DNA of 64,000 nt from Ginglymostoma cirratum (Eukaryota), in NCBI GenBank assembly GCA_024137785.1, contig JAHRHZ010000012.1, positions 50,131,201 to 50,195,200 of the forward strand, given 5' to 3'. The position numbers were made by a program, and so were the translations under genes. Under the pieces are notes generated by a model. It was not told the DNA's origin, ran no database searches, and saw only the letters and a program-made list of their open reading frames with translations. Below, piece after piece: positions 16,137-64,000 of this stretch (within the stretch, counting starts at the first letter, position 1; each line of letters opens with the position of its first letter).

Positions 16137-16254
16137 CTCACTTTCTCCNNNNNNNNNNCACACACACGCTCTCACTTTCTCCCACAAATGTGGCCACACA
16201 CACACTCACTTTCTCCCACATATGTGGCCACACACACACACACACACACACACA
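16078..16254. repeat. (CA)n microsatellite with assembly gap (N at 16149-16158)
   Basis: Directly visible; cacacgctctcactttctcc repeated on both sides of the gap. Confidence 0.97.
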
Positions 16255-34977: not shown

Positions 34978-35194
34978 AGAACAACTCCTGCACGAGAATG
35001 AATAGGGTCAAGTTGTATTCAGTACTGGTTTCAGGCCTCATTTAACTTAAGAGTGATGAACTGTGGAGGTCCACTGCAATTTCTTAAGCAACTCATGACA
35101 AAGCGAAATGAACTGCAGCCAATGTGCAGATCCTCTTGGAAGGTCTCTTTCAGTTGGCAGTGGGGAGGCAATTTTAAAGATCAAATATGATTTG
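34978..35194 (+). pseudogene. RGS-like exon remnant
   Basis: tttttcag acceptor, tttg|gtaatg donor; EQLLHENE*GQVVFSTGFRPHLT, frameshift, NCGGPLQFLKQLMTK. Confidence 0.55.
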
Positions 35195-35355: not shown

Positions 35356-35548
35356 TTTCAGAATAACAAAGCCTTTTGTGATCTAACCAACAAGGACACA
35401 CTGGAGGCTGTAACAATAACTGTTAAGTTTTTTACAACTTACCTCAGTGTAGAACAAGGAGGTAAGTTGTAAAAAACCTAACAGTTATTGTTACAGCCTC
35501 CAGTGTGTCCTTGTTGGTTAGATCACAAAAGGCTTTGTCATTCTGAAA
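35356..35548. repeat. 90-bp inverted repeat with 13-nt loop
   Basis: Arms 35356-35445 and 35459-35548, two mismatches. Confidence 0.97.
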
Positions 35549-38989: not shown

Positions 38990-40748
38990 GCATCAACATC
39001 CTCTTCCTCACGGATGTGCAATCCCTTTACATACCATCCCCCATCAGGATTGCCTCAGGGCTCTTCACTTCTTTCTGGAAAACAGGCCTCAACTCTCCTA
39101 ATCCACAACCGCCCTCCTCTGAGCTCATCCTCACTTTGAACAACTTCTCCTCTGATGCGTCTCACTTTCCTTGGGTCAGATGAGTGGCCGGGGGCAGCCA
39201 CAGTGGCCCCATTATGCCTGTCTATTTGTGGGGTATGTGGAAAATCCTTTTTCCAATCCCATTCGTACCCCCATCCGCAACTCTTTCTCCGGTGCATTGA
39301 TGACATCATCAGTGTTGTTTCCCTTTCTCGTCCGGAATTGGAAATGTTTATCAATTTTGCTTCCATTTTCCACCTCACTCTCACCTTCACCTGGTCCATC
39401 TCTGACTCCTCCCTTCCCTTCCTCGAGATCTCTATTTCCATTTCTGGGGATAGGCTGGCCACTAACATCCACTACAAACCTACTGACTCCCACAGTTACC
39501 CTGCCTATACATCCCAACACAATGCTTCCAATATGACTCCGTCCCATTCTCCCACTTTTTCTGTATCTGTCGCATCTCTTTTGATGATACCAATTTTCAC
39601 TGGGGGGGGGCCTCAGAAATGTCCATCGTTATCCTCAACCAAGGATTCCCCATCACTGTGGTTGTCAGGGCCCTCAGCCATGTCTGACCCATTACCTGCA
39701 CTTCTGGCCTCATGCCTTCCTTTCCCTCCCAAAACAGGGTCCTCCTGGTCCTCAATTTCTACCCCACCAGCATCCACATCCAAAAGATCATTAGCTGCCA
39801 TATCTGCCAACTCCAGTGGATGCCAACTCCAGATGTTCAATCACAGCCCTTCCCTTGTTAGCCTTCCACAGGGATTTGTTCCCTCTGAAACTCTCTGGCA
39901 TACATGTCCTCCACTCCCTGCACCTCCTCACACCTCCAAGGCACCTTCCCATGCAACCGCAGAAGCTGTAACGCCTGCCTGTTTACTTTCAACCTTCTTG
40001 CTAACCAAGGCCCCAGAAATGCCTTCCGAGTGAAGCATAAATTTATCTGCACTTCAGCCAATCTGGTCTACTGTATTCACTGCTCACATTGTGGTCTCCT
40101 CTAAAATGAGGAGATGAAACATAGATTGGGTGACTGCTTTGCAGAATACCTACGTTCTGTCTGCAAAATGACCCCGAGCTTCCTAATGCCTGCCACTGCA
40201 AAACATCACTGTGTTCCCTGGCCAACATCTCTGTCTCAGGCTTGCTATAGTTCTCTAGTGCTAGCTGGAAGAATGGTATCTCATCTTCTGGTTGGGAACC
40301 CTGAAGCCTTCAGGACTCAATATTGAGTTAAATAATTTTAGGGCCTGAGCACCTTTCTCCACATCCTTTACCCACCCTCACACACCAGGCCCTGTCACCA
40401 CATGGGTTGCTTTCATCAAAGCCAACCCATTTGCACCAACTAATGGTTCCTATTAACGGGTTTTCTTTCTCCCCAGCTCACCATTATCTATCCTTTTGTC
40501 TTCCCAACTATCATTCTTTCTCTCTAGGCTCCATCTCCACCTACGGCTCATCCTTTTACCTTCTCCTCTTCACCTCTATCTTCAGCATATGTACTAATCT
40601 TTCCTGGCCACAATCAATTCTGAAGGAAGTTTACTGAACACAAAACATTAACTCTGCTTTCCCTCCACAAATGCTGCCAGATGTGCTGAGTTTCTCCAGC
40701 AATTTCTGTTTTTGTTTCAGATCGCCAGCACCTGCAGTTCTTTGCTCT
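38990..40748 (+). mobile_element. Penelope-like element (Neptune-type), 5'-truncated: RT + GIY-YIG + pLTR
   Basis: DVQSLY..IPH; FLRCIDDI; LPFLEISI...HYKPTDSHSY; Cys linker GTFPCNRRSCNAC; CTSANLVYCIHCSHCGLL; frameshifted. Confidence 0.92.
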
Positions 40749-41505: not shown

Positions 41506-41947
41506 ATGCCAAACATAATGCTAATAATGGATTCTGATCATAATCCCTCGATGAAGAATCCAGATTTCTGACTACTTTATATTTATAATGCCTTCCCGTC
41601 ATGATTATTTTAACAGTTTACCTTTTTGTCACAATTATCTTAACATATTGCTGTTTGAAATTATGTCTGCTCAAGAAGTGCTCCTAAACAGGCTTTAATA
41701 TCTGGTGGTAGTAATTTGGATAACTGACTGATGATAGCCTGGGCAACAGTTTTGAAAAATGTAAAAATGTAGAACAAGCAGTTGGCTGACCACACCCAAA
41801 CCCTTGGGCTAATATTGGAGGCTACTCTTAGCTTATTGTGATGGGATAATCATGACGGGAAGGCATTATAAATATAACGTATCAGAAATCTGGATTCTTC
41901 ATCGAGGGGTTATGATCAGAATCCATTATTAGCATTATGTTTGGCAT
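41506..41947. repeat. Inverted duplication, about 103-bp arms, 237-bp spacer
   Basis: Arms 41506-41608 and 41846-41947; two substitutions and one indel. Confidence 0.95.
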
Positions 41948-44136
41948 GACTTGACTGAGGACTACTCCCCTCAGACTTTGGCAGGCATATGGTGATTGGT
42001 GTAGCACACTGTCATTCAGTAACATGCCCACCCTTTAAATGATGTCTGCTTAGAACTATGATAAACAGCATTGCTTTGTGACTGCCCTAAAAGGTCATTC
42101 AGGACAGACGTAATGTGAAAGTTTAAGATCTGGCTGAGGGCAAAAAGCACAGAATGGTAAGGCGTGGCAAGTCAAGCCATTAATCCTGTGGACATCCAAG
42201 CAAGCAGAAAGTAAGTGAGCCCATCGCCATAAGATACACCCTAGTCAAATCCATAAGATGGGTGCCTGTAGAAACCGAAAGAACTGCAGATACTGTAAAT
42301 CTGGAACAAAAACAAGTTTCTAGAAAATCTCAGCAGGTGTAGCAACATCTGTGAAGAAAAATCAGAGTTAATGTTTCAGGTCTGATGACCCTTCCTCAGA
42401 CGGGTGTCTGTGCTGCTTGCAAAGTGTTCTGGCACTAGGATTGCAATGATAGTTAATGGTGCACTCCAAAGCTTAGCATTGATGTCACGAATTGTACTGT
42501 AAGTGGATTAGAAGTCAACCATGATGACGTGGTGAGGCTGGTACATGTCGGATGCTAATGTCCATGGATGATGCTGTGTAGTCATCGCACATGGGGCGTG
42601 ACAGTCGGTGACTGGTGCCCAAATGGATATCTGGAAGAACAAGGGGCAAGGTGGAGCCAACTGGAACACTCACTAACTTTAGTGCTGGTAATTGTCACCA
42701 CTTAGTTTCTATCTGATGAATGGACATTGGGACACTGCATATTAATGTGGTGAAATTAAGTACCAGTGAAATGTATGATTTTTGGCACTCATTAGTGAAA
42801 ATTCCATCTCACCATTCAAGACTTGGTTGGAAAATAGGACCTCTTGTTATTGACATCCAGAATCTCCTCACAGGTCAACTCACATGATTCTGCTAACTTT
42901 CTCATGGTAGCCCATGAAATTCAGGGGCTGAGAACATCCTGCCCACGGTCACATGGGCCAACAGTTTCTTTAACAAGTGAATAAATGTTTAATACACAAA
43001 TGAAGAAAACAAAAGAAAAACAAACGAAGTTATTTAGATACAGAATACAGTTAGGAAAATCTTAAAACACTCTCATAAAGTTCAATTAATTCCCCAACTC
43101 TATCATTCTATAATGAGTCAAACCCAGAGTAATTGCATATCTATATCAAGTATGTAACTTTGACTTAACTGATTCTTCCACAATTTGAATCCTGTAAACT
43201 GTGGAATCTTCGATGCGAACACTCAAAAATCTAAGATCATCAACTTTCTCAGCTTCTAATATCTTTCAGATTTCCAGCCAAACACTCCTGGTTTGAGATA
43301 ACTTATATTATATATTACCCTGAAAAATATCTACTTTCTAGGAGAAACATTATATTCTCTTTGAACTCCAGCCAGGACTCTTTCAAACTGACCTCAAAAA
43401 TCTCAATGTTCAAAATTCTTTGTTTTCTAAACTGAAATCAATCCTAGATTATTCTAAACTGAGAACTAGCTAATAACCTTCAATGTTTACCCCACCCACC
43501 GTAAACCAGCTCTGCATAAATAAAACAATATGTTGCCATCCAGGGGTCCCCTGCTCTCTGATGTATACTGGATTATCTCACAGATCTGGAAAGACTGTCT
43601 AACCTTGCTTTTTTTTTGAAGCAACAACTTTTCTTAAAATAGGGATGTGGGCTTCTCAATGAGGTCAGGATAGTGCTGTCCAATCCTGGGAGTTGCCCAA
43701 AGAGGTACGATGGATCCAGCAGTACATGCCATCCATGTCGCAGAACCCAAAAATGCTGCTACTCCATCAGACATATTTTTGCAATTCAGATCATCTGCCC
43801 TCGGAAAGTCAAGAAACATTTGCTGCATTTGATACAATAAAAACCCACTAAAAATTGCCCTTCTCACCAGATTATTTCAGTATGCAGTCCTGGATAAGAC
43901 ACTGTTGAAGTAGTAAACAGAGAAAAAAAATAGTACTTTGGCTAAAACTACTCCAAATAAATATGCAGAGTGCCAACTAACTTCTAAAGGACTACACTTA
44001 GCTGCTTTCATGTTACAGAAATTAGCTCACATGCAAACCCATTAAAGATACTTGTATGTTAATTGCTCGCATAAACTCATTCTCATGTTAATTAAATGTC
44101 AGAAGTCCAGTGGTGAGTCACTTGTTTTTACCCTAG

Positions 44137-47000
44137 GACATAACATAAAACAACTATAGAACAGTCTGAGTGTAGTAACTTCAGGAGAGGTCATCAGCAA
44201 GACAATTCATTACTGGGATAAAGCTCTGCCTTTAGGACAATATGTTATCTATGATGGAGCAATTCTGATTGAAATATGCCAATGTCAGTGACATTATTTT
44301 ACTCAGTGGACAAGACCATTTTCGAATTCAATAATATTATGTGAGTGGGACGATCAAATAAAATGTTTTGGATAGGCTGCGTGATTTCTCATTTGAAATA
44401 TTCTTAGACAAAACAAAATGTTCTTAATGTTTGTATTTTTATTTCCTGTAGCCTGGTAAAGTTGCCAAAGTCCTCAAAAACATGAGATCTTTCTTGATAA
44501 GATAATTACTTAACAAACAATATGTTAACCATTTAAAGGAATATTACATTTTAAATTATTATTTACAGCTGTATAGAAATGATCTTAAAAAGATTGAAAA
44601 TGAAAAACTATGGCTGTTATACAACCTAGATTTCTGGTGTCCAAGGTGAAGGGTGTTAACATTGCAATTGGAATTGTTGTTATTTAATTCCCTTTATGCG
44701 ATAGACAATTTGATTTAAGTACATATGTAGTGGATCACCAGCCCGCCCTCCCGCTCTCCGCTCCCCCAACCCCTGCACCAGAGGCACAGTGGGAATCAAA
44801 CAAACATGCAGTTCCAATTTTCTGGAAGCCAAAAAGTTCAACAAATAGCATCGGTCTAGGCCCAAAACATCAAGCTTTCCTGCTCCTATGATGCTGCTTG
44901 GCCTGCTGTGTTCATCCAGCTCCACACCTTGTTATCCCGGATTCTCCAGCATCTGCAGTTCCTATTATCTCTGAACAAATAGCATCTGACTTGTTTAGCA
45001 CCACATCCACCATTTTGAACATCCACTGCCATTGTCACTAGTGTGACATGGCTGCAGTGCATGATGTCTAACGGAGCTATTGCAGCACAGCAAACAACAC
45101 ATGGAAACTTCCAAACTGAGACCACAACCACCTAGAAGCATAAGGCAGCATGTACATAGTAACAGAATCACCATTTTAAGTGCCTTTTGGAAAACTTTCA
45201 CTGCACAAACTGCATTGGTTCAAAAAGGTTCACCAACATGTTCTCAAGGACAGTTGGGAAAGGACTTAAATCTTGCCCCTAAAATTCAGAGAATGGAAAG
45301 GAAAAAGATTTAGCAACTCAGTTTTGTTCAATGCAACTTTCATTCAATGCATCCACATTGAGTTTCTGAGTTACCTAGATCTCTTGCGACACCTCATTTT
45401 ATTTTTGCTGTAGGTGTATGCCCACTAGAATCTAAATTGGGTTGAACTCCTTTCACATGAACTCCCCAAGCTAGAGGAACCCTACATTTAGAAGTTCTGA
45501 AATCGATACCCAGTCACCCTGATCACAAACTTTGTAAATCTATGATATTTTGTAAGCCCCTCCACTGTTTCATAAAAATACATTTAAGGGTATGATAGAA
45601 CAAATCTACAACCTGACACTGATGTGGACAATTTACCATTTTCTTGCAAGGTCACTGTAAGATACCAAAATTAACACAATGCTGAATCGTCAATCATGCA
45701 GCAGCAAACAGGTGAATAAGTAACTCATTCTTATTTCCTGATGAAGGAAAGAGGAAACAGAAACAGTTATACCAATAGACTGTTATTTGTGGTGACAAGT
45801 ACAAATTGATTAGAAGATGTGCTCTGAGAAGTCAGCAACATGATTACCATAATTTCATTTCTTTTGCTCATTTGAAATTCAGTTCCCTGGAAGTTTCTGC
45901 TAGTGATTCACAGTTTGTCTGCTAATGATTTTGACTTTCATTAATTGAGATAATCTAAGCCCTATTCAGAGCAATTTTCTAAAGACACCAACTTAATATA
46001 TTTCTGTTTTATTCTCAGACAAAAGTGGATCCAACGGTCAAGAGGTTACTACATTTAGCAAACCATCATACCAATTATCCAGACATGTGGCAATTCATCA
46101 TTCATAAATAAATTATTTCAGGTCATATATAGGTTGGATATTAATTTTCATCATCATATTTATTTTTGCAATATTATATAGTGTCAGAATTAACCTATTC
46201 TGAGCCTCTAACTAACTTCCATACGGTTGATCATGATCAAATATCACAGTAAACAGCCATGTAACAGAAAAAAATGTAATTCAAAAATGCAAATATTATT
46301 AATATATTTTTGAACATACTTTTCACTACATTTTTGAAATCATCTATTGTGATGTTTTCATAGCTACCTGACATAAATGCTGTTTCTTGCATTGTACTCC
46401 CAAGTCCTGCAAACATCTATTTTACATTCCAATATAGCAAAAAAAAAATGATACTTGCAGACAGCTTAGTTGTGCTGCATTGACATATCTGGATTACCAG
46501 AAATAAGACGAGAAATCAGGTAAAGCCTAAGAATTCTTAAGAAGATATGTTAGCCAGTAGTTTTAGTGTGCCACTTGGTCAGGTTTTATCCAGTTTCTGA
46601 GATGTAAGCTAAAAAAAATTAAGAAAATTATTCTTCTTGTATCCTATGTGAAAATACATACATGCTTTTACAAATAATACATCAAATTCAGGAATGTTGA
46701 AAAAACGATGCAGAATTGTTAGCATCTGAAAGTGAAAATTGGTTAATGTTTCCTTTGCAAATGCTCACAGACTTAATTTAGAAATCTAGCATTTATGCTC
46801 ATTATTTTTATCGTCGGATTTGTTAAGAGTTGGAATTCTATTTATTGCCAGAATGTTGGGAATAGTTAAATAGCATTTCTTTCATGAAGTTAAATTCAGA
46901 TCTGGTCCAATCTCACAAAATACACTGCAAAGCTGTAAAGAAACGTTTCCTGTGGGCACTTTACTAGAATTGCAATGAGTGAAATATACAGTCTAGGAAG
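44137..47000 (+). pseudogene. Exon remnant cluster (44137-44340, 44452-44645, 45414-45533, 46019-46121, 46405-46519, 46900 onward)
   Basis: AG/GT-bounded; LLNKQYVNHLKEY...LLYNLDFW; VKRLLHLANHHTNYPDMWQFII; YLQTA*LCCIDISGLPEIRREI; SGPISQNTLQSCKE...LLELQ*VKY. Confidence 0.65.
44853..44973 (+). mobile_element. Penelope pLTR insertion with 13-bp TSD
   Basis: AACAAATAGCATC at 44840-44852 and 44974-44986. Confidence 0.85.
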
Positions 47001-47279
47001 TTATAATGTTACTGAATTGCAAGCTCTACATGCTCCAGTCATTGACCGTGATTAAAACTTTCCCAGTCAACAGAAATCCTAAGACAGAAACCCGATATCT
47101 ATGCTTTCATAAACATGACATTTCCTCCAACATGCCAATTATTGCATCTTGTTTTTGTGCCTTCCCTCACCGGCATTCCTGAAGCTAATTACCCTGTCCT
47201 GGATTACAGTTTCATAAGTATGTCCGACAACCTGTTCAAGTAACATCTATACATCTTAACAATGAATATTGTCAGCTAT

Positions 47280-48720
47280 TCAGCAATAACAAACTTACAT
47301 GTATGTACACTCTAGAAGGCCTGAGGGGCACCTCAGGAGCGTAAATAGAAATTGTTATTAAGCCAAAGAAGGCGATATTAGGAGGGTGACAAAGAACTTG
47401 GTCAAATCAGATATTTTAAGGATAAGCTTACAGAAAACGAGAGTGAGAGGCCAAGGATGAACTAAGAAGGAATTTCAAGAACCCAGGGCTGTGATGACTG
47501 AAGGGATGGCTGTTAGAAATGGTGCAAAGGGAATTCATGAGATGCAGAGATTTAGAAGGCCAAAATTGGAGAAATATAGAGTTCTTTAAAAATTTAAGAT
47601 ATTGAGATTGGAGTAGCCTGCAGGGATAAGGAGGAGTGAGGCCTTTGAAAGACTGAAGATAAGGAAGATAATTTAAAATGCATGGTCCTGGTGGATCAGA
47701 ATACAAATGAGGACAATGAACACTGTGGTGATGGGTAATCAAGACTTGACTCAGGATAGGTTATGGGAAGTCCAGCTTTGGATGAGCATAAGGTCAAGCA
47801 AGATGGAAGAAAGGGGACCAGCCAGGTGAGCAGGGTACTAGTCAAATCTGGAGGTAACAGTGGAAAATGACATTTCAGTGGTTAATGCACTGACACATGA
47901 ATGGGATTGACTGATATTACAGAGATATAAGTCAGTGGACTGGAGTAATGAAGAGGATATAAATTTAGAAGCTCAGATTAGGGAAAATAGGATGCTGAGG
48001 CTGCAAACACTCTGGTTCAGACTGAGACAGCGGTCAGGGAGGAGAATGTCATTGAAGGAAGGACCGAGCTCGTAGCAGAAGCTGGTGTCACTATATTTAG
48101 TCTTCCCAATGTGTAGCTGGAGGAAATTGTGGCTCGTCTGTGAAGAATGATAGGCAGCAATGTGAAAGAACAGAGATAGTGTTGGGGTGAAGAAAGATAG
48201 GAATCAGGTGGTCATCAGAGTAGGTGTTAACCCTAGTGACATTCTTAGATGATGTAGCCTAGAAGGAGGAAAGTTAAGATGGCCACACAAGAGGTAATTG
48301 TGTGGTGGCAGCACCAGAGGTAATTGAAAGAAATACTCTTTTTGTGAATGAGTAGATAAGAAGGGAATCTGGAAAAAGTAATCCCACCCAGCTAGGTGAA
48401 AGATTAAGTTGAAGGAAGGAGGTGTAGTAGACCATTCAATAGATTGCAGACAGATTGAGAAGGAGGTGGAGGGATCGTGCATCACGGCACATTGACCAAG
48501 AATACCATTCATGATTTTTATTTAGGTTTTTGCTGAGGTGGAACTTATTTTGGAGAGGTAAGATGGGAGCTGAAAGCTGGTTCAAGGCATTTGGAGAGTG
48601 GTTAAGAAATGGAATGAGGCTTTATCAGAACAATGGGGAGCAAGGGTGTTTATTTTTCTACCAAAAGTGGGCAATGATGGCTTGAGAAGAAAAGATACAG
48701 TATCTTAGGAAAGTGGAATA
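47280..48720 (-). mobile_element. L2-clade LINE 3' relic
   Basis: Purine-rich + strand; minus strand reads LQSFKGLTPPYPCRLL (K.L.GL.P.YL..LL); related bit at 34020-34280. Confidence 0.7.
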
Positions 48721-48884
48721 TTAATTACGTTCATTGAACATTTACAGCGTCACAGACATTCTGCCATTGCTCAGCAGCATTGTTTGAATAAAATGAATAA
48801 GAATCAAGGCTAATTTACCCTTCTCTTATCAAGAGATAATTAAAACAATTGTAGTGCTCCTTTCTACCTCAAATTATGAGCAAA

Positions 48885-49145
48885 GAACAAAGAACAATAC
48901 ATCATAGAAACAGGGCCTTTGGCCCTCCAAGCCTGTGCCGACACATCTTGCCCTTCCATACAAAAACTGTCTTTCACTTACAGGATCCTTATCCCTATAT
49001 TCCCTTCCTATTCATGTATTTGTCCAGGTGTTTCGTGAATGTTGCTATTGTGCCTGCTTCCTCTATCTCCTCTGGCAGCATGTTCCAGGCACTCACCACA
49101 CTTTGTGTGAAAAACGTGCCTCGCTCATCTCTTTTAAATGTCTCT
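48885..49145 (-). mobile_element. CR1/HER1 3' tail
   Basis: (aaagaac)n tail and FFTQSVVSAWNMLP on the minus strand; similar tail at 56925-57150. Confidence 0.85.
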
Positions 49146-51509
49146 TAACTTCTGCCATTTTTCTGCTCATGCCTCCAACTGATCTATATCCTGTTGTATC
49201 CTCTGACAATTAACTTAGCTAACTCAGCAAGCTCTAGTATAGGAAGACAATGTATTCATTTGTATTGATCAGCTGCTTGAGGTACTGATAATAAACGAGA
49301 TAATGAAGGAGTTGGTATATACATTTCAGAAAGAACTTCTCATGATGGCTTTCACTGACTCTTTGAGAAAGTAAATCTATGAAGACCTTGACAGTAGTCC
49401 TTGTCTTATTACTGTGAAAGTTATGATCAAAAAATGCCAATGGTTTGATAATGTTGCAAAGGAAAACAATGCAAAAAATAGTAGTCTTCTGTGATTTTTA
49501 GTTATTCAAGTGTCTCGAAACGTGTTCAGGTGTCTATTAAATTAGATGTTTAAGCTCTGCTTTCTTTTGTGAGCAATATTAATCTTTTTGACAGCAGTAC
49601 AATAATTAAAATGAACAGTAATTTGTTAAGTCATGACCTTTAATTGAATCAGCAATTACCATATTTCCTCATATACAACATACCCTGCGTAATGGAAGTT
49701 TATGATTGAATATGGCACTATTCATAGAGATTAAAATAAATAGCTTTCATTTTTGTATTGTCATACCATATTTTAGAATGCCCCAACTAATTATTACTGA
49801 ATTGTAGTCAACTATTAGCGAACTGGAAAGATAACGGCAAAAGTATGTCATGGATATATAATTGTACATTTCTTCCCAAGCTACAAACAAACACAGTAAT
49901 TGCAGGTGAAACTCAGCAGGTCTGTCAACATCTTTGGAGGGAAAGCAGAGTCAACATTTTGGGTCCAGTGACCCTTCTTCAGATTTCCCGCAATTACAGT
50001 TATTTTTTGTCTGTTTAGTAGATAGGATGGATAGCCTTCTTAGCCCAAATCTACTACGTATTTGTAGCCTGACTCCATTCTTAGACCTAGATGTGCATTG
50101 AACAATTGCACACACATTTGGTTTACTTTTGGGTGTGTTTCGCTTGTTGACTTGAAGGGAGGTGAGATATTATGTTTGATTCCCTGAATTATGTCCACAT
50201 AAAATCAGTTCAAATTATTTTTAAAAAATTTAAAAAAGCTCACACAAAAGAAGAGTTAAGATTTTACATTGGGACATATTGACCACATCCCTTCCTGACA
50301 GAAAACTCGCTTCGGAGACCATAGACTGGGAAACCAGCAGCCCTTTACCAATATGACGCTGACAGCAGTCTTCATTCTTTAAGAGTGAGATTTCTGATTC
50401 ACCCAGGAAAAGGTGCACCTTAGAGACCTGCCACCCAATCTGATCTAATCTAATCTAATCTAATCCACTGTCAGTTCCATATCACAGCAATGCCAGGATC
50501 GAACAGCAGCTGCTGCTGGGACCACAGTCAGTTGCCACCCAAGAAGTCTCATGGAACTCAGTCTCACAAATAAATCTTGTATTTTGGATGCCCATGGCTT
50601 GTGGTCTCAATGAATGAGGGAAGAGTGGGGTGGAATCTTGGTTGGCAAGGCTGAGAGATGGTGGTGGGAGATTAAGTGGGGTGGGAGATGTGTGTGATTT
50701 GGGGAGTAATGTGTCTCTAGCGTGTCTAAATGAGATTCGACCCTCCTGTTTTTGCTCAACAGTAACCCAGTCAGTGAAGAGTTATCTTCTGCTTCACCAC
50801 CATGTGGAAATTGCACTGGAGATAGAATGAGACCCTTTTAAGTCAACTAATTGGGCACTTAATGACCTCATTAGGCAGAAAGGCAGGCAGAGTGCCTGAT
50901 ACCTTCCCAGTCAGCAGCAGCATCATCCTGTTCACTAGCAGAAGATTCATCCCTTTGTCTCTCTGTATTATTTTCAGACCATCTTCCATCTGAACTAAGC
51001 AACTGCCTAACAAGTGCCCTTACCTGATGAAGAATGTCCACTAATATACTGTGATTCTAGGAGGTGGAAGATTAATCTCTGTCAATCACTAATTTGAACC
51101 TTTCTAAGATAAGGCAGGTATTTAAGACGTGAGGATGTCTACATTCTTCCTCGTGCTTTTAGCTCGCGTCCTGTTCAGGGTCATTCCCTGGTTCTCTGTA
51201 AACACTTGCCTAAGTCAATGGGTACTCAAGGTGCCACACTGACTTAGGAATAATCTCAACATGGAAGCTTGAACTGAGTGACCTTGATGTTTCCAGGGAT
51301 GGTTAGAATTATTTACATATTTGCAGGGAGCAAGATATCATCTAATTACATAAATTCTATACCATACAGAAAATATGAGAAAATATTAGCTTATTAAGCG
51401 TCCATTACTTCTTACATGCCTCAATATAGATGACATCTTGGCGGTGGGCTGGAAGGCAGTGGGAGGTCCACCCACCTTATTTTATGAACACACTTACCCC
51501 TGCCTTCAG

Positions 51510-51732
51510 AGATAATAGGTACTGCAGATGCTGGAGAATCAGAGATAACAAGGTGTGGAGCTGGATGAACACAGCAGACCAAGCAGCATCATAGGAGCAG
51601 GAAAGCTTGACGTTTCGGGCCTAGACCCTTCATCAGAAATGGGGGAGGGGAAGAGGGTTCTGGCTTTCCTGGTCTTATGATGCTGCTTGGCCTGCTGTGT
51701 TCATCCAGCTCCATACCTTGTTATCTCGGATT
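51510..51732. mobile_element. Penelope pLTR hairpin mini-element with 13-bp TSD
   Basis: 71-bp arms 51536-51606 / 51663-51733; TSD CCCCTGCCTTCAG at 51497-51509 and 51733-51745. Confidence 0.85.
51609..51636 (-). ncRNA. Minimal type I hammerhead ribozyme core (Penelope-associated)
   Basis: Minus strand CUGAUGA-A-GGGUC-UA-GGCCC-GAAACGUC: both core boxes, stem II, palindromic ACGU, GUC triplet. Confidence 0.7.
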
Positions 51733-54299
51733 CCCCTGCCTTCAGTTATGTGAGTGAGTGGCTGTAGAACCTATCCATATGTGTGTTTTTAAATATTAAT
51801 CACTAAATGACTTATACAAATTGCGTATCAAAATAACAATTGCAGAATGCTTTACGTAACCAAAGATTGCATTAACAAGCTTAAATCAGATTTGTCTTTA
51901 TCTTCAATTAAAGTATTTATATAACGTGGTCTAACTCTTCCTATAGACTGGTCTGAAATTTTTGATAAAGGAACAATTTTGCAGAAATACGCCTCCAGCT
52001 CTGTAAGTTATAATTAGAGGTCATTTAGGATTTCATAATTTATGTTAAATTTGTGGAGTGAACTAACAGACAACTTAGGGATTTATTAAAATTTAATTTT
52101 AAAGTATGAAAATGATCTGAATGTACATGTAGGATTTAAAATTTTTAAAAAGTGGTTTTTAATTAAACTGCCCAAGAATTATATTATAAAGCAGCACAAA
52201 AGATTGTAAATTGGCCCTAGATTTTTGTTTCTAGATAGCAAATTAATCCCATTTCTCTGTCATTCCCCTGCCTTCACCTGTACCCTTGAAAGTTTTTCTT
52301 TATTTCAGACTCCATTTTGAATGTCGCTATTGAATCTGGTTCCACCACCTGTTCAAGGAGTACATTCCAGATTATAATAATGCACTTGTAAAATCATTCT
52401 CCTCATCTTCACCTGACATTTTAACCATTCACCTTTAATTGATTTCCGTGGGTAGCTGATTTTTACTTATCACCTCCACACCTTCTCCAAGGTCTTGCCT
52501 TCCTTTCTAAAGTGTGGTGCCCTAGCTGAGGTCTAACCAATGATTTATGAAGGATTGGAGAATGAAGATGTATTAATACTGGGATTACGTGTGTAGTGAA
52601 GCTGGGCCAAGGCTGGCTCTCTTTGGGCTGAGGCATATGTACGTGCATAATAATGCTCAGATTGTGGTGATATTTCACAGCAGGACCTGACTTTTAATCA
52701 TGTTGGATCCCTCTTAACATTAAATCAAGCTCTTCCCCTAATTGAGACTGTGCGGTGATCAAACTAGCATCTTCCACTTTTCAATATGTGGTTTGGTACC
52801 TAGAGCATTAGAAACACAATAAACCATAGGGTAAGTACATAATTTTCAATCCTGAGAGACTGCTGAAGAGGACGTCAGTAATATTGCAATGCAAAACAGA
52901 ATGGGCCATTCAGCTCCTTCGGCCAGAATCATCTTTCAACCAGAACATGGCTGACATGAATCTTAGTTTCATTTTATTCAGTATCTCATAATATTTCTGC
53001 CCCCCAAAAATATATCATTGATAGTTCTGAATTTTTGAATTGGTCTTTGTTCAATGGCCAGATTGTGGACTTTCATTTTCTTTTGTGTGAGGAAGTCAGT
53101 TCTCAAATCACCTGTCAATTTATATAGCTTTAATTTTTAAGTTAAATTCCCATCTAACAGGTAGCTCTCCATCACCTTCTCAAGGGCAACTAAAGACAAG
53201 CAATAAATGCTAGCCCAGCCAGAGATGCCCACATCCCGTAAGTGAATTTTAAAAAATTCTACTCATTTCAGCAGATGACATAGCATCTCTGTATCCACTC
53301 CATCAAACCCTTTAATCATCTTAAACACCATAGTTACTGTGAATGCCAGTATATATGTTGTCCTTTGAAGCCTTAATAAATCTCTCCAAATATCAGGTTT
53401 GATGTTTATGCTGCATTTAAGTGAACATCCAGTGACGGTGTTAGTGGTTGCCATCTTGAAATGACATCTGCTTCCAAAGATACAGACGGAATGTCAAAAA
53501 CTCCCACACACCTTCACAACACAGCCATTATTGCCTGCTTAATCACTTCTGTGCAGGTGAAAGGTATCAGGGTGTAAAACATGTATTTGTGCAAAGAAAA
53601 ACTGAGGCACGTATACCATGCTATGGCTGAAACATGCCAAGTTTATGCAAAAGCATGATTTTAGAACTTATACACCATAATTTATGGTATATTCAGATGA
53701 TAGAAAGATTGACAATACCGGAAAAAGCCTCCTTGATTCAGGTTCACATCACTTGAGTAATTTCTTTACAGCACCTGATCGACTTCATTGCAGTTTTTGC
53801 ATTGTTGCAGCGCAAATATCAACTTATATTGGCAGTAAGGTTATAATATGTTGGCCATTATAATATTTTGGTATTGGAAGCAAACGTCAAATGTCTTCAC
53901 ATATGATTATTGTTTCTGTGAATACTGCTCCATTCAAAAGCAAGAATTAGCAATATCACTGCACTGTTCTTCTGACTTCTATCAGCAGATCTTCCACTCT
54001 TATAAACAATAGTAATGGGACCTTTGCTCCTGTGAATTGTCAACACAGTATTCAATAAGTTTGAATTTCAACCAATGTGTGTTCCCAACTTGCACTGTGA
54101 CCTGAAGTAAGTATGCAGAATGGCAGATATGTTCATTATTTTCATGTTAAGCTTTGTGATATTTCGTATTTATTTTTGTGCCATTTATTCTGATACCTTT
54201 ATGAGGCACTGAGCATTTGTGTTTGGGGCATGTTTCCATTCAATATGTGTGAACCATTACTTTGGCGCAGTATTTATTGTAGAGGAAGAGGGTTGCATG

Positions 54300-56420
54300 G
54301 CTGACATCCCAAGGAAATGAATATTGAATCAGGGTCTATGATTCATCCAAATGATCCTAAGTAAATTTTCAGTAATTAAGAAAGTAATGGCATTAATGCG
54401 TCACAAACTCCCAGAACAAGATGATTTCCAACGTAAAGGTTTAAAAGGAAGTAAGTGAAATGCCAAATGATAATTTTATCATTATCTTTATATTTATAGA
54501 TGGAAAATTATTGGAGTCTATAATTAAGGATAGGATTTCTGAATACCTTGAAATGTTTCAGCTGAACAGAGAGAACCAGCAAAAATTTGTAAAGAGTACA
54601 TCATGAATAGCAGACCTGAACAAATTTTTGAAAAGATGACAAAATTGCTGGTCAGGGAAACATTAATGAATGCTATATATTTAAAGGCAATTGGTAAAAC
54701 CTTTACAAAATTAATTAATATTGATTTTTATGGAGTTGAAGACAAATCATTGACTTGGTTAGGAAATTGTATGATTGACAGAAGACAGATAAAAGAGATG
54801 ATGGGTAGATACTGTAATTTGCAGAAGGAACAAGTGACATTTCACAAAAATTTGTGATTTTGCCATCTCAAACATTCATTGTAATTATTGATGATTTAGA
54901 GGATGGGATAGAATGTCGCCCTCCAAGTTTTCTGATGCCCCAAACATGGGGAACACTGTAAGTAGTGTAAATAGAAGCATGAAATTACAAACAGATCACA
55001 AAGTGAATGATGAAAACTGTGACCAACATATGTCAATGAAAGCAAATGTAAAGTTACCAACTTTCTGAAGAATAGCCATGCCAGACTTGAAACATTAACT
55101 CAGTTACTGTCTCTACAGATGCTACCAAATCTGCTAGGTTTCTCCAGCATTCTCTGGATTGTTAAGGGAAGGGCTTGTTAGTCAAATTTAATCAAATCTT
55201 TTGAGAAGCTAACCAGGAATGATGATGAAGGTAACACATTTGATGCGATCTACATGGATTTTGCAAAGCTTTTCACAAGGTTCCTCACAGCAGACTGATT
55301 AAGAAAGTAAGAGTCCATGGGATCAAAGCAAGACAGCATGCCGGACCCAAAACTGGCTGAGTGGACAAAACCTATAGGGTGATGGTATAGTGATGTTTCT
55401 GTAATTGGAAGTCTGTTTTCATTAAGGGTCAGCAGGGCTCAGTACTGGGACCATTTTTTGTTTGTGGTATACATTAATAACTCGGACATGAATGAGGAAG
55501 CATGATTAAGAAGTTTGTGAATGGCATGAAAATTTATTGGGTATAGGATGCAGGATTTATAGGATAGCTGTAAACTGTAGGAGGATAACAGGTTGGTTGT
55601 TAGGTTGACAGATTGGTAGAGCAGTGACAAATGGAATTCAATCCAGAAAAGTATGAGCTAATGTGCTTGGGGAGGGCTAACAAAGGTGAGGATTACACCA
55701 TTAATCCTGGAAAGGACTGGTGTCATATCCACAGAATCCTGAAGGCAGCAAAATGATTACATAAGGTTTTTACAAAGGCATATGGCTTATTTTTTATTCT
55801 GTGTCTCAACTATTAAAGGCAACAACAGTGAGGTTATGTTGCAATGGTACAAAAGACTGGCTGGACCATAACAGGAGTAATTTGGGAACATCTGTTTGCC
55901 AAACTATAGGAAGGATGTGCTTGTATTAGAGAAGGTTGAGAGGAGATTTACCAGGAGGTTGGCTGGGCTGGCAGGTCTGAGCTACGAGGCAAGGTTGGAT
56001 AGACTGGGGTTGCTTGTTTTGCAGCAATTTAGGTTGAGAAGTGACCTGATAGGGATGTATAAGGTTGTGAGAAGCATAGATAGGATGAATAAGAAGACTT
56101 TTTTTTTCAATAGTAGAGCAATAACTTTAGATTATTAGATTTATTATTATTAGAGGCATAGATTTAAGGTAAGAGATAAAAGGCTAAGATGAGAATTGAG
56201 GAGAAATATTTTCACCCAGAGGGTGGTGGGAGACTTATTGTCATGAAAGAGTGGTTGAGTCAATAACTTGTACACTTAAGCAATATTTAGATATAATGGC
56301 CTCTAGAGCTATGGACCAAGACCTGGAAAATGGGTCAAGTGTCATCAGAACTTTGTTAACCAGTATAGACACAGTGGGCCAAATGGTCTTCTTCTGAACT
56401 ATAAACATCTAGTGAGTGTG
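54300..56420 (+). mobile_element. Two CR1 RT relics (54300-55060, 55165-56420)
   Basis: DAIYMDFAKAF.KVPH.RL; PNYRKDVLVLEKVERRFTR...RLRSDLIGMYK. Confidence 0.85.
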
Positions 56421-56492
56421 TAAATCACGTTCCAAAATCACTTAGTACTGCAAGGAAGCATTGGGGTTTTGTCTGTTACGGTGAATGGATAG

Positions 56493-57416
56493 GCATTAAG
56501 ATGACATCATCACCCTTCTGACTGCCTGCAAAATTGCCAAAAGAGCAATTAAAGTCATCAACCCAAATAGACTGCACAGACTCTCAACAGAATTACAATT
56601 GCAGCAAATTGCCTTTGGGGGAACGGTCAGGTGTCACTTTAAAAAGGCATCAGAAGACCTTCATCACCTCAAAAAACAAGAAAACATTCTGCAAAAGCAA
56701 ATTTCTGAAGAAATGACTATCATGCAAAGAAGGAAAAATTCAAGAAGTTAAAGGTACACAAGAAAAGGTGAAGAGAATGTTTCCGGTTGGGGATAAGTGA
56801 CAGTTGTAACAGATTCTAGGCCATTAACTTGAACTTACAAGGGTTTGAAATGGAATTTAAACTCACCACAAAAGCAGTGTTTCAATACTGATAGACTCCT
56901 TCCCATGGTTGAGGTCTGTAACAGTCATAGAGTCATAGAGCTATAAAGCAGAGAAACAGACCCTTTAGTCCGACTCATCCATGCCAGCCAGATATCTTAT
57001 GTAAATCTAGTCCCATTTGCCAGCATTTGGCCCACGTCCTCTAAACCCTTCTTATTCATGTACCCATCCAGATGCCTTTTAAATGTTGTAATCGTACCAG
57101 CCTCCACACTTCCTCTCGCAGCTCATTCCATACACACACCACCATCTGCATGTGCACAGTCTTACTGCCCAAAAAACACTGCTCCAGGAAAACTCAGTAC
57201 CTATGTTTTATATTTTTAAAGTTTAATCAAGAGACAGATCTCAATGAAAGCATATAATCGAAAAGAACCCACTCTACTCACTATTGCACATTTACTAAAA
57301 AAAAAGTAAACTTGGCTGTTCCCCTTCTGTGAGCTCCCCGCACAACCTTCTCCAAGGTCAGCTATTAATTTTGCTGTTGTATAAAATTCCAAGGTCTTGG
57401 AGGCACAGATCTTTAG
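56493..57416 (+). pseudogene. Two exon remnants (56493-56753, 57222-57416)
   Basis: H*DDIITLLTAC...KASEDLHHLKKQENILQKQISEE (83 stop-free codons); LTIAHLLKKK*TWLFPFCE...RSAINFAVV; both phase 2-2. Confidence 0.6.
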
Positions 57417-57483
57417 GTATGTAGGGATATCACCACACATTTGAGTGATGAGGAAAGTTATGGTCTGGGAGACCCTCGGACTA

Positions 57484-60008
57484 AGATTCAAGATTGTTGA
57501 CTGTATTTATTCCACCATTTGAGTATCATTGTTTCAATTATATCCCATTTGAGATCTCCTCTGTACCAGAGATTTTCCAAAGAAAATGTCTAGAATCCTG
57601 GATTGGAAACGGTGAGCCATTTGCCATATGGATGATATTCTAATGCATTGTGAAACAAAGAAGGAACACGAAAAGAGGACCAGAGACATATTAATGACAT
57701 TATAGAATACAGATGTCACACTAAATGAGAAATGTCAATTTCATAAGCCATCGATTACATTTCAGGACATATTATTCAAGAACAAGGCATCACAGTGCAT
57801 CCAAGGAAGGCCAGAGTTATCAGTGAATTTCCGGAATGGAAGTACAGAAATAATCTACAATGTTACTTAGACACAGTATATTAAGTGGGAAGATTTATCC
57901 CAAATTTACTCAGTCTAAGAAATCCATACAGCACTTTTGCAAAAATGGCATAAAATGAAATTGGAAGCCAGAACAGACTGCGGCTTTTGAAAGGATGAAA
58001 GAGAAGTTACTTTGAAGAAAAAAATCCATGGGAAAGGTTAGCAATAGAACTGTTTGATTTTAGAGAGAAGGTATTTTTCATTCTTGTTGCCTAATTCAAG
58101 TTGGATTGAAGTGGCAAAACTTCATTCAGACACAGGGGGAGTCCACGACCAGAGAACTGAAAAGGACATTTGTGATACACGATTTCCTAGGAGAAGTAGT
58201 ATTGAACAGTGGATCTCAATCCATGAACAAGGATTTCAAGGAGTTTACTTTGGAGATAAATATTAAGAATGTAACAGGTTCTCCACTCCATCCCCAGTCA
58301 AAGGGAGAGGCAGGAAAAGCAATCAACACCATGAAGTCATTGATGCTTAAGAATCCAGACAGTGAATTAGTTCTGCCCATTTGCAAAGCAACACTATCAA
58401 ATAGTGGGTAATTGAGAGAAGAATTGTTAATGAGGAGGAGGTTAGAAATGTATGTATCAGTTTTAGAAAATAACCTCAGGCCAAACATAACAAGGACATT
58501 TCAAGGTCATGAGAAGATCAAATAATTACAGAAAAACCACCGTAGAAAGCAGCAGAGGCATTACAACTCTAGACATATAACATAGAACATAGAACAGTAC
58601 AGCACAGTATGGGCTCTTCGGCCCACAGTGTTGTGCTGACCTATTATCCTACTCTAAGATCAAACCACCCTGCATACCCTATGTTTTACCATCATCCATG
58701 TGTCTATCTAAGAGTTGCTTAAACGTTCCTAATGTACCTGACTCCACTACCACCACTGGCAGTGCATTCCACATACCCACCACTCTCTGTGTAAAGAACC
58801 TGCCTCTGACATCTCCCCTACATCTTCCTCCAATCACCTTAAAATTATTCCCCCTCATAATAGTCATTTCCACCCTGGGGAAAAAAGTCTCTGGCTATCC
58901 ATTCTATCTATGCCTCTCATCATCTTGTACACCTCTACCAAGTTACCTCTCATCCTTCTTCACTCCAATGAGAAAAGCCCTAGCTCCCTCAACCTTTCCT
59001 CATAAGACCTGCCCTCCAATCCAGGCAGCATCCTGGTTAATCTCCTCTGCATCCTCTCTAAAATTTCCACATCTTTCCCATAATGAGGTGACCAGAATTG
59101 AACACTAGTATGGCCTAACCAGGGTGCAATAGAGTTGCAGCATAACCTCACGGGTCTTAAACTCATTTCCCCTGCCAATGAAAGCCAACACACCATATGC
59201 CTCTTAACACCCCTATCAACTTGGATGGCAACTTTGAGGGATCTATGGATGTGGACCCCAAGCTCCCTCTGCTCCTCCACACTGCCAAGAATCCTGTGAT
59301 CACCCTGTATTCTGCATTCAAATTCAACCTTCCAAAATGAATCACTTCACACTTTTCCGGGTTGAGTTCCATCTGCTACTTCTTTGCCCAGCTCTGCATC
59401 CTGCCAATGTCCCATTGCAACCTACAACATCCCTCCACACTATCCACAACTCCAGCAACCTTTCTGTCATCAGCAAACTTACTAACCCACCCCTCCACTT
59501 CCTCATCCAAGTCATTTATAAAGATCATAAAGAGCAGAGATTTCGCAAAGAGCAAAGAACAGATTTCACATAGGGTGAAAAATCTACTAGCGTTAAAGAC
59601 AGGACAGAAAGACTGACTAAAAATTAGGATGTCAAAAGCCAAAGTCATCAAAAAAATAGATTAGTTGAGATTTTATTATGGCAGAATGCCTAAGGGGACA
59701 GTCAGGACAAACAGAAAGACACTTAACTCAAGAAGTGACACAAAGTACGATTATCAGAAAATAATGGAAAGCCATATTTGCACTAGAGTGTACTTATTGG
59801 CATAATCATTCCAGACACACCATCACCCAAGAGTTGAACTCAAGTGAATTAGTTTGGAATGTCCAGTCAGAGTTTAAGACCTGTGAGATCTAAAGTGTGG
59901 AAGTGGGATGGTGGATGATAATGATAATGGTCATAACAGTGACAATGGTAATAATTGTATTAATGATGAAATTGCTGATTTCCAGTACAGAGTAGCTTGG
60001 GGGAGATT
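57484..60008 (+). mobile_element. Gypsy pol relic (RT, integrase, PPT); RNase H deleted
   Basis: LLTVFIPPFEYHCFNYIPFEISSVPEIFQ; CHMDDIL; PWERLAIELFDF; GSPLHPQSKGEA; TVRTNRK; PPT-like ttgggggagat about 59998-60008. Confidence 0.88.
58580..59545 (-). mobile_element. Young CR1 LINE, 5'-truncated, inserted in the Gypsy integrase
   Basis: IFINDLDEEVEGWVSKFADD; [20 protein letters not shown]; (aacatag)n tail. Confidence 0.93.
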
Positions 60009-60038
60009 TATGAGATTCATATAAGTAATGAAGATGTG

Positions 60039-60356
60039 GGTGGCACAGTGCCTAAGTGGTTAGCAATGCTGCCTCTCAGAATGACGGGTTCAATTTCAGC
60101 TGTGGTAGACTGTCCGTATGAGTTTCTGCCGTGTGATCCAGTTTCCTCCTTGAATCTAAAGCTGTGCAGGTTAGGTGGATTGACCATGCTAAATTGTCCA
60201 TAGTATCCAGGGATATGTAGGCTAGGTGGATTGGCCATATAAGTGTGGGATTATTGGGATAGGAGAAGGTGGTGGGTTTGGTTGGGATGCTGTTCAGAGA
60301 ATCAGTGCAGACTTGAAGAGCCAGGTGACCTCTTTCCACACTGTAGGGATTCTGTG
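60039..60356 (+). mobile_element. Degenerate HE1-type V-SINE
   Basis: Head ggtggcacagtg...gggttcaatttc; tail ctgtagggattc. Confidence 0.8.
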
Positions 60357-60731
60357 TCATAGATGACATGATTTCAACATCAGGGAGAGTTAACACTTCT
60401 ATGTGAAGTAAGTCTGTGAAAAGGGAGTTTGTGGATGTTCCACTAGACCATTGAATTTGAGGCCCTAGTCTCAAACTTGTTCTCAGATCAGGCACAGTGG
60501 GGCAGAAGAAATCCAGTCTCCAAAAACCCAGGCCTATAAAATTAACCATCAATTTTATGTCTGGGGAAGGGAGCTGAATTGGGAATCATGCTGGGCAATT
60601 TGGGAAGAGCCTCAAAGGCTGCCCTTTCTTGAGATGGAATAGATGGAGATTATTCAAGCCTCTAGCCAAAGGTCAGAGTGTAAAAATAAGGATAAAAACA
60701 TCAATCATCTCTTCTGTCACTCCCCACACAG

Positions 60732-61098
60732 ACCCCATGCCCCATCCAAGCCAACCAATGCCCTTTGGCACATCTACATGATTCTTCATATCTCCTTCAT
60801 ATCGTTTGCTGCTAGTCACAAGTAAGGGCCTTTTCTCGTCCCTGGACCAATTTGAAAACCATATATACTACATTAAATGGATGCAGAAAGTCCAGGAGAT
60901 CCATATGGAATAACCAAAACACTCTACATTGGAACTACCATTGTATCCGAGACCATTGAATCAGGCAACTGAATCAGCGTCATGAAACCTTAGTCGTTGT
61001 ATATGCTTAACACCTATGGTTGCAATTGCTGTAATTGGAGGATGATGCTTTTGTGAAATATTTAAAAGTGTATTCTACAACCTTGTGTTTGAATAAAG
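60732..61098 (+). pseudogene. Exon remnant with a complete RGS-like domain
   Basis: cccacacag acceptor, aaag|gtactg donor; SFISFAASHK (fs) GLFSSLDQFEN...KVQEIHME*PKHSTLELPL (fs) IRQLNQRHETLVVVYA*HLWLQLL*LEDDAFVKYL. Confidence 0.7.
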
Positions 61099-61329
61099 GT
61101 ACTGTCTTTGGGTGTTAATTTAAAAAAAAGGAGCAAGCAACCTCAGGGACCAGTATGTGCTGACACCCACAGTCCAGAGATACTCCACATAGTATCGCAA
61201 AGTGCAGGAAGCAGTATTAGTTCAAAGTGCAAGATAAAGTAGCCACAAGCTACAAACAGTGGAAATTAACCAGGCTTTGGCATGGGGAGGGGGTGATTCC
61301 AGGTGCTTAAATCAGTAAATGTCCATGCA

Positions 61330-61950
61330 AGAAACACAGGAAACAACAAAATAATAATAAAAAATATTGGCCTTTATATCTAGAAGAATAGAATACAAGG
61401 AGACAGGAGTCATACTTCTATATACAAAGCTCTGGTCGGTCTACTTCTTAGAGTACCATCAGCAGCTTCTGGGAGCCACAACTTAGAAAGGAGAAAATGG
61501 TCTAAAAGAGATATGGGGTTAATATACCAGAAAGCTACCTGAACTCCAATGGTTAATTCAAAAAGAGACACTACACAGACTAGCATTGCAATCTCTGTAT
61601 TTAGAAAACTAAAAGCGGAATATGGTTTAATTTTCTAAGATACTAAGGAAATAAGATCAAGTAAATGAAAGTCAACTGTATCTGTTCTTTGAGAGGCTAA
61701 GACCACAGGACAAAAAATTAAAGCCAGACCCTTCAAGAATAAAAATATACATGCAAACGATGGTAGAAAGTTGGAATTCTCGTTTGCAAAAAGCAGTTAA
61801 CGCTGGATATTTATATGTATATTACTTATAATTTTTTGTTATTCAAAGGTATTGAATGATATGGAAAAACGAAATATAGAGTTAGGTTTTGAGTCAGGTA
61901 TCATCCCAATGAATGGCAGAGTAGACTGAGGAGGATAATGTTATTTCTCA
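61330..61950 (+). mobile_element. Old CR1 3' relic
   Basis: LAFISRRIEYK...YKALV..LLEY; WNS near 61770. Confidence 0.75.
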
Positions 61951-62713
61951 TTTTCAAAGCTGTTGCCTAGGATTAAAGTTTCATTTCTGATATATATATA
62001 TCAGATATCCATTTTCAGTGACTGATTAATCAATGAGGAGGTCCAAATGTTATTCATGACTGATCTTGATTTAAATACAGAAGACAAGCTTCATTTTTAG
62101 AAGCTTGACATTTGGAAAGTTAAGAGAACTGGTGTGCAGAGACAGAAGTGGATCTCAGAAATACTTTAAATGGGAAGGCTGGGAAGCTTGGGTTCCTGGG
62201 TCACAGTGGGAAATCTTAACAATGCAACAACAGATTAAATTTATGGGGAAATACAATGCAAAAATGACTATATCTTGACAGGTCGTTATTGTAGGTAATG
62301 TCTTTTGGCATAACCCAAGGATATGAAATGCATAATATAAATGTAAAGAGTACACAAACAACAGTTGATCTTAACTCAGAATATGAAGCTTAAAAGTCTA
62401 ATCAAGTAAAATACATTATTAAACCATTTCCACTTTAATCTCAATCCCATTGATGTTCCCTTTAAATATTCACTTTAAGAAGAATTAGAAATGCCTGCTT
62501 CCAGGCATGTAGGTTTGTGGCGTGAGCGTCGTGGAAGCAGATAGTGTACCATAATTGAAGAAACACTATCTACAACCTACAGGAGTGTAACTACATGGTC
62601 CATGAGGCATAATACTTCAGATTAAAGGTGTGCTGCAAGAAAATTTGCAACATGAGGGGTGTCAGATCTTGATCATGAAAGCATGTTTGACCTGAATTTT
62701 CTCTAAATTGCAG

Positions 62714-63595
62714 GAGTCAAGTTAGTTAATGTCAAGAAATCTTTGTTCAAGGAACAATTTGCCAAACAAATTTTGATTACTGAGGAATATTCAAGAAACA
62801 ACCTGTAGAAGATTTCATAGGGCTTCCTAGACACCTGATGAAACCTGTGAAGAAAACTGAACACAGTGAAAACAGTTATGATGGATAAAATAAATTCATT
62901 TCATACTAACCAAATGGAAACCTGTGACTGTACAGGATTTGCAATAATGTCTTCGATTCCTATCAGCACAAGAGAGTTCAGATTGCAAGAATCAGCAATG
63001 TTTGCAGGGAAATGCAAACGATAAGACAACAAATGAGCAGTGTAACGTACTTGAGTTCACTGATGAATTGTCAACAAATGTAATTACGATGTTATTGTCA
63101 TGCAGTTAGCTGAACCAACTGTGACTACTGATTCAAGCCTGATGTCACATCCTGTCAAGCAGAACAGTATTATTCTGTATCTTCTCAGGAGGATCAGTGA
63201 CAAAGATCATGCCACGCAAGAGTGATCTTTCAAGTAGTATGAATGAGGATGTCAATTCACTAATAAAGCAATTATTGTGGATGAATGAAAACATCCAATC
63301 AAAAGAATAAATTGAAGTAAGGAGTCTATACACTTCAACACAGATTTGTCAACATACTGAGAATGAAACTCTGCTTACACAATTTAAGGAAGAAAGCATC
63401 AATGAGATAGGACAACCAATGTCCACTGATTCTGTCAAGAAGAAATTGCCTAGTTTAAAGGTCCAGGATATTGCCAAAAAGAAAACAAAACTGCCTGGTC
63501 TAGAACTTTGAAGCCAGGGCCTTGTGGAGGGATGGGGTACTGATATAAGTAATTGTATACGCAAATATGTAAAGTTAATGAGAAAAAAATCTGAG
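62714..63595 (+). pseudogene. Large low-complexity (S/K/E-rich) exon remnant
   Basis: ttgcag acceptor phase-matched to the previous exon, gag|gtgaga donor; frame 63143-63631 has only two internal stops in 163 codons. Confidence 0.55.
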
Positions 63596-64000
63596 GTGAG
63601 ATTTTATATAATTTGGGGGGATCAATGCTGAAGAATGCATTAAGAACCAATGATGTCATGGCTAATAATTTAGGGGAAAGCTTAGTGTCTCAAAAAGTAA
63701 AATCTAACATCGAAGACCCTTTCCTCCTCTTAATAACAATGCCTATCGTATCAACATAACTTGTAGTTAGTTGCTATTATGCAATAATTGTTTAAGGCAA
63801 GAACATCTGCTCATTAGACCACTAGGTGGTTTTGCCCTTCCATATACACCGAGCAGATACTATAGATCCCTACCAGGAAAGAGATTGGAGCCGCAAATCT
63901 ACCAGATGGATTTTATAACACAATGAGCTGTGGTGAGAATATATTTTACAACATTCAGGATTCTGAAGTATAATAAAGTTACTGTGATAGTCTAATTCTT

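Follow-up and report, generated by a model that had tools for sequence, protein, structure and literature searches.

The described genes with which the locus analyzed here is best compared are RGS22 and RGSL1. RGS22 is described as a radial-spoke component that is needed for coordinated ciliary beating; its RGS domains have no G-alpha-binding residues and belong to none of the canonical subfamilies, and domain 1 of the mouse protein spans residues 408–530 (PMC13443885). The protein has also been modelled in bovine axonemes (PMC11779644). For RGSL1, a table lists knockout mice without a reproductive phenotype (PMC11949450), and PMC8491582 offers only tumour-marker correlations. Among the matches listed for the literature on RGSL1 and RGS22, there is no report of a pseudogene such as the one proposed below.

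We analyzed a stretch of 64,000 nucleotides of the Ginglymostoma cirratum genome (contig JAHRHZ010000012.1, positions 50,131,201 to 50,195,200), hereafter the window, which has a G+C content of 40% and, as in vertebrate DNA, about one fifth of the expected CpG. With a probability of roughly 0.6, an RGSL1-type multi-RGS gene has left an old unprocessed pseudogene on the plus strand of the last third of the window, a reading that rests on the apparent likeness of short motifs. That the locus is a pseudogene of some member of the RGSL1/RGS22 family, unconfirmed by tools as the family is, appears probable.

With RGSL1, the locus would share an RGS-like box straight after the N-terminal segment, three more boxes, and the order of short motifs, but it differs in being dead and in linkers of units 1–2 and 3–4 that appear far longer. 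With RGS22, it would share four RGS-like units. As in unprocessed (unitary or duplicated) vertebrate pseudogenes, the exon-intron layout is kept, the frame is destroyed and repeats lie in introns only, but this locus is unusually decayed, close to the limit of recognition.

Candidate exons and splice sites

The original prediction consisted of 15 plus-strand exons in two phase-compatible chains that were thought to form a real spliced gene beginning at 45414. This start is probably too far downstream: just before it, and also on the plus strand, there are three candidate exons (43871–44645) that have strong splice sites and are separated by short introns, and the gene probably begins there, about 1.5 kb upstream of 45414. 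Exon triplets of this kind number 7 over both strands, so that coincidence is roughly a 1-in-10 matter, under thresholds that were set post hoc. At the other end, the gene probably continues beyond the end of the window. The exon remnants between 43871 and 63595, about 18 in number with a total of 3666 nt or about 1220 codons, are the following.

43871..44112, plus strand, 242 nt: candidate exon, unused by the original prediction; 3 stops in its best frame; acceptor 10.0 bits, donor 10.0 bits
44236..44340, plus strand, 105 nt: candidate exon, first half of the first RGS-like unit; one internal frameshift needed; acceptor 7.7 bits, donor 6.9 bits
44452..44645, plus strand, 194 nt, phase 0 to 2: candidate exon, second half of the first RGS-like unit; the best frame has a single stop in 64 codons, the remaining two have 6 and 8 stops
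45414..45533, plus strand: originally predicted exon; the acceptor is strong and the donor weak; stops at 45426, 45489 and 45498
46019..46121, plus strand: originally predicted exon; 1 stop in each of the three frames, frame ambiguous
46405..46519, plus strand: originally predicted exon; stops at 46449 and 46467, frame ambiguous
46900..46951, plus strand: exon originally left open; weak acceptor, doubtful
49273..49442, plus strand: originally predicted exon in which one frame stands out most clearly, with 1 stop against 9 and 5 in the others
50239..50384, plus strand: originally predicted exon; doubtful boundary, the acceptor ranking at the 3rd percentile; stops at 50354 and 50360
50978..51301, plus strand: originally predicted exon; 7–9 stops per frame, though no frameshift had been claimed
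51947..52002, plus strand: originally predicted exon; two frames without stops
52681..52830, plus strand: originally predicted exon, opening the second RGS-like unit; stops at 52756, 52765 and 52801; alternative GT at 52796
53772..53834, plus strand: originally predicted exon, middle of the second RGS-like unit; no stop in its frame
53986..54106, plus strand: originally predicted exon; best-looking pieces fall in each of the three frames in turn
56493..56753, plus strand: originally predicted exon, end of the second unit and linker; weak acceptor; contains the longest stop-free run among the exons (83 codons, 56500–56748)
57222..57416, plus strand: originally predicted exon; stops at 57307 and 57382; presumably linker and start of the third RGS-like unit
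60732..61098, plus strand: originally predicted exon; 4–8 stops per frame, several frameshifts; presumably the body of the third RGS-like unit
62714..63595, plus strand, 882 nt: long exon; 13 or more stops in every frame; ends at a strong donor at 63596 (99.7th percentile); presumably linker, then start of the fourth unit

The segment 50978..51301 either contains internal frameshifts or is not an exon, and 53986..54106 probably contains two frameshifts. All 13 exons with two defined ends are preceded by AG and followed by GT, and AG also precedes the open exons at 46900 and 62714, so the boundaries themselves stand. Ranked among all AG and GT dinucleotides in the window with an approximate splice-site matrix, 9 of the 15 acceptors and 11 of the 14 donors rank in the 85th percentile or higher; these 20 strong sites of 29 were picked by eye, and the count is biased accordingly. 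The sites at 50239 and 56493 had been flagged as weak, and the scoring bears this out (3rd and 51st percentile, respectively); the acceptor at 46900 is also poor (34th percentile). A donor after 46951 (4.7 bits) would make a stop-free exon of 52 nt, phase 2 to 0, that links the two original chains.

The phases originally assigned agree with the exon lengths, except at 53986 (121 nt, phase 0 to 1) and 60732 (367 nt, phase 2 to 0), where the frameshifts that the prediction had allowed are needed. Splicing of 44645 to 45414 would create a phase clash (2 versus 0) and require a further frameshift. Under the RGSL1-type reading, 45414 would be entered in phase 2, which calls for a frameshift soon afterwards, and the exon at 52681 may originally have used a donor near 52796 rather than the one at 52831.

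Phase-compatible exon chains

The original prediction held that a long chain of phase-compatible exons supports a real gene. Equally long chains are, however, obtained from the minus strand and from shuffled sequence, the very comparison by which the prediction had proposed to be judged. In a dynamic programming search with site thresholds stricter than the original ones and stops tolerated up to 6%, the longest chain on the plus strand at 44–64 kb comprises 46 exons, compared with 44 on the minus strand, 45–50 in four other 20-kb segments and 42–51 in 10 shuffles. Scored chains fare no better on the plus strand (223 versus 194–244 in 12 shuffles). Phases follow from exon lengths unless frames are fixed independently, which is not the case here, so the chain is uninformative; in several exons, another frame holds as few stops as the chosen one or fewer. 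Thus, the phase chain carries no weight as gene evidence. The practical lesson is that a chain of phase-compatible exons does not argue for a gene if it is allowed to contain stop codons.

That the minus strand and shuffles match the plus strand in both chain length and gene-finder score favors the reading that there is no gene here, only intergenic or intronic DNA, rich in repeats, from which AG/GT pairs and frames were selected by eye, with RGS motifs being read into noise. We consider this unlikely, although the corrected coding tests described in the next section, the lack of motif enrichment and the blank homology searches all point the same way. A counterweight is that the apparent resemblances to RGSL1 follow the family order across 20 kb and reach into exons that the original prediction did not use.

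Coding capacity and decay

Stop codons occur in all three frames in 12 of the 14 exons; in the frames originally chosen, there are 25 among 561 codons over the 11 exons claimed to be free of frameshifts. No open reading frame runs across the spliced exons, every long exon being blocked. The locus makes no protein and does not function as a gene. The original proposal of a real gene, spliced and with an RGS-type unit, is plausible for the remains of such a gene, on grounds other than the phase chain.

The many splice sites that are still strong would be accounted for if assembly errors had damaged the sequence of a coding gene, or if a gene that has ceased to code were still spliced as a non-coding RNA. 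Read errors typically give indels, whereas here most of the breaks are in-frame stop codons, which affect nearly all exons, and 20 strong sites of 29 is about what would remain after neutral decay of 0.2 substitutions per site; we regard a live locus of either kind as very improbable. Under the preferred reading, the locus has the hallmark of an unprocessed pseudogene, namely, disabling lesions combined with retained introns, provided that the exons are real.

The signals of former coding are weak as far as the nucleotide sequence goes. Before correction and without the 50978 exon, there are 16 stops in 454 codons, fewer than the background of 6.1% would give (P=0.009; P=0.052 if that exon is included), but the depletion is not significant when each chain may take its best frame (P=0.16 and 0.37). 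For codon likelihood, P is 0.02 if the frames are fixed, and there is no signal with the best of three frames (P=0.65–0.67). A-richness exceeds that of the flanks in 10 of 14 exons (P=0.046); neither the G+C contrast between exons and flanks (P=0.15) nor a coding score that tolerates frameshifts (P=0.29) reaches significance, and the exon translations show no helical periodicity (P=0.69). The loss of significance after correction favors the absence of a gene; against it, several weak signals agree, namely, stop depletion, codon likelihood, A-richness and the upstream exon triplet.

From the stop rate of 3.5%, we estimate a decay of about 0.4 substitutions per site, with 0.2 as the approximate lower bound. 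This would leave 46–66% identity to the ancestor, and less to any living relative. Dating from the epaulette shark mutation rate of 7e-10 per generation (PMC10587355) was rejected, the implied age being implausibly great. Such an age implies that hidden frameshifts inflate the decay estimate, or that some of the exons are false.

Homology searches

The original prediction read one RGS unit across four exons. The quoted peptide pieces are present, but QIFHSY and PNLHCDL lie in different frames. In 19 single-exon read-throughs compared with Pfam at E<=1, there is no RGS match, in a test weakened by the splitting of domains over exons and frames; the only match, below threshold, is TnpB_IS66 (E 0.057). 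Three generic RGS motifs are not enriched in the exons (0–3 of the top 200 versus 4.4–4.7 expected); RGS22-type boxes themselves diverge from the canonical RGS motifs, so that weak matches are expected for such units. The supposed repeat units show no similarity to each other, the best internal tblastn match (E 0.026, 48 queries) falling outside the exons.

Word-index searches, in which candidates must first share several exact 5-residue words with the query, yielded no match for the 56500–56748 exon among proteins of 147–2000 aa (0 of 22 candidates), for the 44452 exon among proteins of 770–2450 aa (0 of 13), or for a profile of 8 stacked exons among proteins of 150–2000 aa (0 of 4442). A phmmer search with one frame of 62714–63592, an exon that is mostly linker, found 0 matches among 1.84 billion representatives. 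Four queries against PDB sequences, with short and decayed fragments, returned 0, 0, 3 (VTA1, E 0.07–0.42) and 1 (E 0.71) matches, all at chance level and none to RGS22; 60732..61098 in one frame had no match there, and the 44452 exon found no relative. An Atlas search with 56500–56748 gave only unrelated bacterial clusters with low recognition and is uninformative.

The detection power of a pooled profile (A1) puts these results into perspective: a relative with 55% identity would be detected, with 20–90 bits, and one with 45% identity only barely, with at most 31. The decayed pieces are thus near or below the detection limit, and blank searches, which are expected at 45–55% identity, are weak evidence of absence, whether of a homolog or, under the reading without a gene, of the gene itself.

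Apparent likeness to RGSL1 and proposed origin of the locus

The exon translations appear to resemble human RGSL1 at about nine points that follow the same order. We take these to be the end of the N-terminal segment near 44090 (exon 43871–44112); the first RGS-like box at 44236–44645 (near 44250 and in 44452–44645), with its exit at 45414; the second box at 52780–56520, which is the four-exon unit of the original prediction; a glycine pair at 56617 in the linker after that box; the start of the third box at 57385 and its end at 61035; and the start of the fourth box at 63530. Each of these resemblances is insignificant by itself and none is the result of a tool; the assignment to RGSL1 derives from their order and spacing over 20 kb.

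The pseudogene could instead derive from RGS22, or from a distinct multi-RGS paralogue that is longer than RGSL1, perhaps over 2000 aa. Some pieces seem to resemble RGS22 about equally, and the linkers look much longer than those of human RGSL1 or RGS22, but the putative matches near 56617, 57385, 61035 and 63530 appear to fit RGSL1 better. Two of the word-index searches (56500–56748 and the 8-exon profile) covered proteins only up to 2000 aa, which leaves room for a longer paralogue. Mouse RGS22 has four RGS domains (PMC13443885), the number inferred here, but its first domain begins only at residue 408, whereas the first RGS-like unit of this locus appears to follow the N-terminal segment directly; moreover, RGS22 is reported to be broadly retained among animals that have motile cilia (PMC13443885), so that its loss is unlikely. 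On balance, this origin seems quite improbable.

Under the preferred RGSL1-type reading, the ancestral protein would have had an N-terminal segment, then four degenerate RGS boxes joined by long linkers. By analogy with RGS22, this protein is more likely to have been a structural component of cilia or the sperm flagellum than a G-protein GAP. The multi-RGS gene would have lost its function and then decayed neutrally through substitutions, small indels and retroelement insertions in its introns. Such a loss fits the dispensability suggested by the knockout mice listed without a reproductive phenotype (PMC11949450). If real, the pseudogene documents the old loss of a little-studied multi-RGS gene. 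It would be a minor addition to catalogues of gene loss and to what is known of how the RGS22/RGSL1 family evolved, an ordinary one that involves no new mechanism.

A bolder and rather doubtful version is that the locus is a relic, still readable exon by exon, either of RGSL1 or of a longer RGSL1-like paralogue that has so far gone unrecognised, the gene having been lost very early in a shark lineage. If true, this would be an ancient loss of a flagellar or ciliary structural gene in cartilaginous fishes and would help to define an unnamed branch of the RGS22/RGSL1 family.

Repeats and other features of the window

No neighbouring gene was detected in the window: among the 148 of 177 stop-free stretches of 68 or more codons that were compared with Pfam, none reached the cut-off and two gave sub-threshold matches, the 29 omitted stretches being mostly overlapping frames within repeats. 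Therefore, no synteny is usable. Rfam and tRNA scans of the window gave 0 matches.

Repeats within the locus are restricted to the DNA between exons, and repeats internal to the window overlap none of the 15 originally predicted exons. The window is rich in repeats, which we take to be remains of shark-type SINEs and CR1-like LINEs. Three regions in putative introns (54500–56350, 57600–58560 and 58590–59520) have no Pfam match; judging from their translations, these are presumably decayed LINE and Gypsy-integrase-like remains. For sharks and rays, the HE1 SINE and the HER1 LINE are listed (PMC3747384).

The longest ORF of the window (39140–40030, plus strand, 297 codons) has no Pfam match and, to our eye, resembles a decayed retroelement reverse transcriptase. 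A direct duplication of 122 nt (34935–35056 and 36119–36240) lies beside what we take to be the remains of an LTR retrotransposon at about 35.6–37.1 kb. A near-perfect palindrome of 193 nt at 35356–35548 is 94% self-complementary and possibly represents a MITE or a collapsed hairpin element, and the inverted repeats of about 100 nt at 41506–41608 and 41846–41947, 240 nt apart, are MITE-like.

An isolated exon-like stretch at 12749–12890 (plus strand), 31 kb upstream of the locus, has a fair acceptor and looks RGS-like by eye, probably by chance. Strong donor-like sites are scarce on the minus strand at 60001–64000 (5 versus 14–31 in other 4-kb bins), perhaps for compositional reasons. A 10-base assembly gap lies within a CA repeat at 16149–16158.
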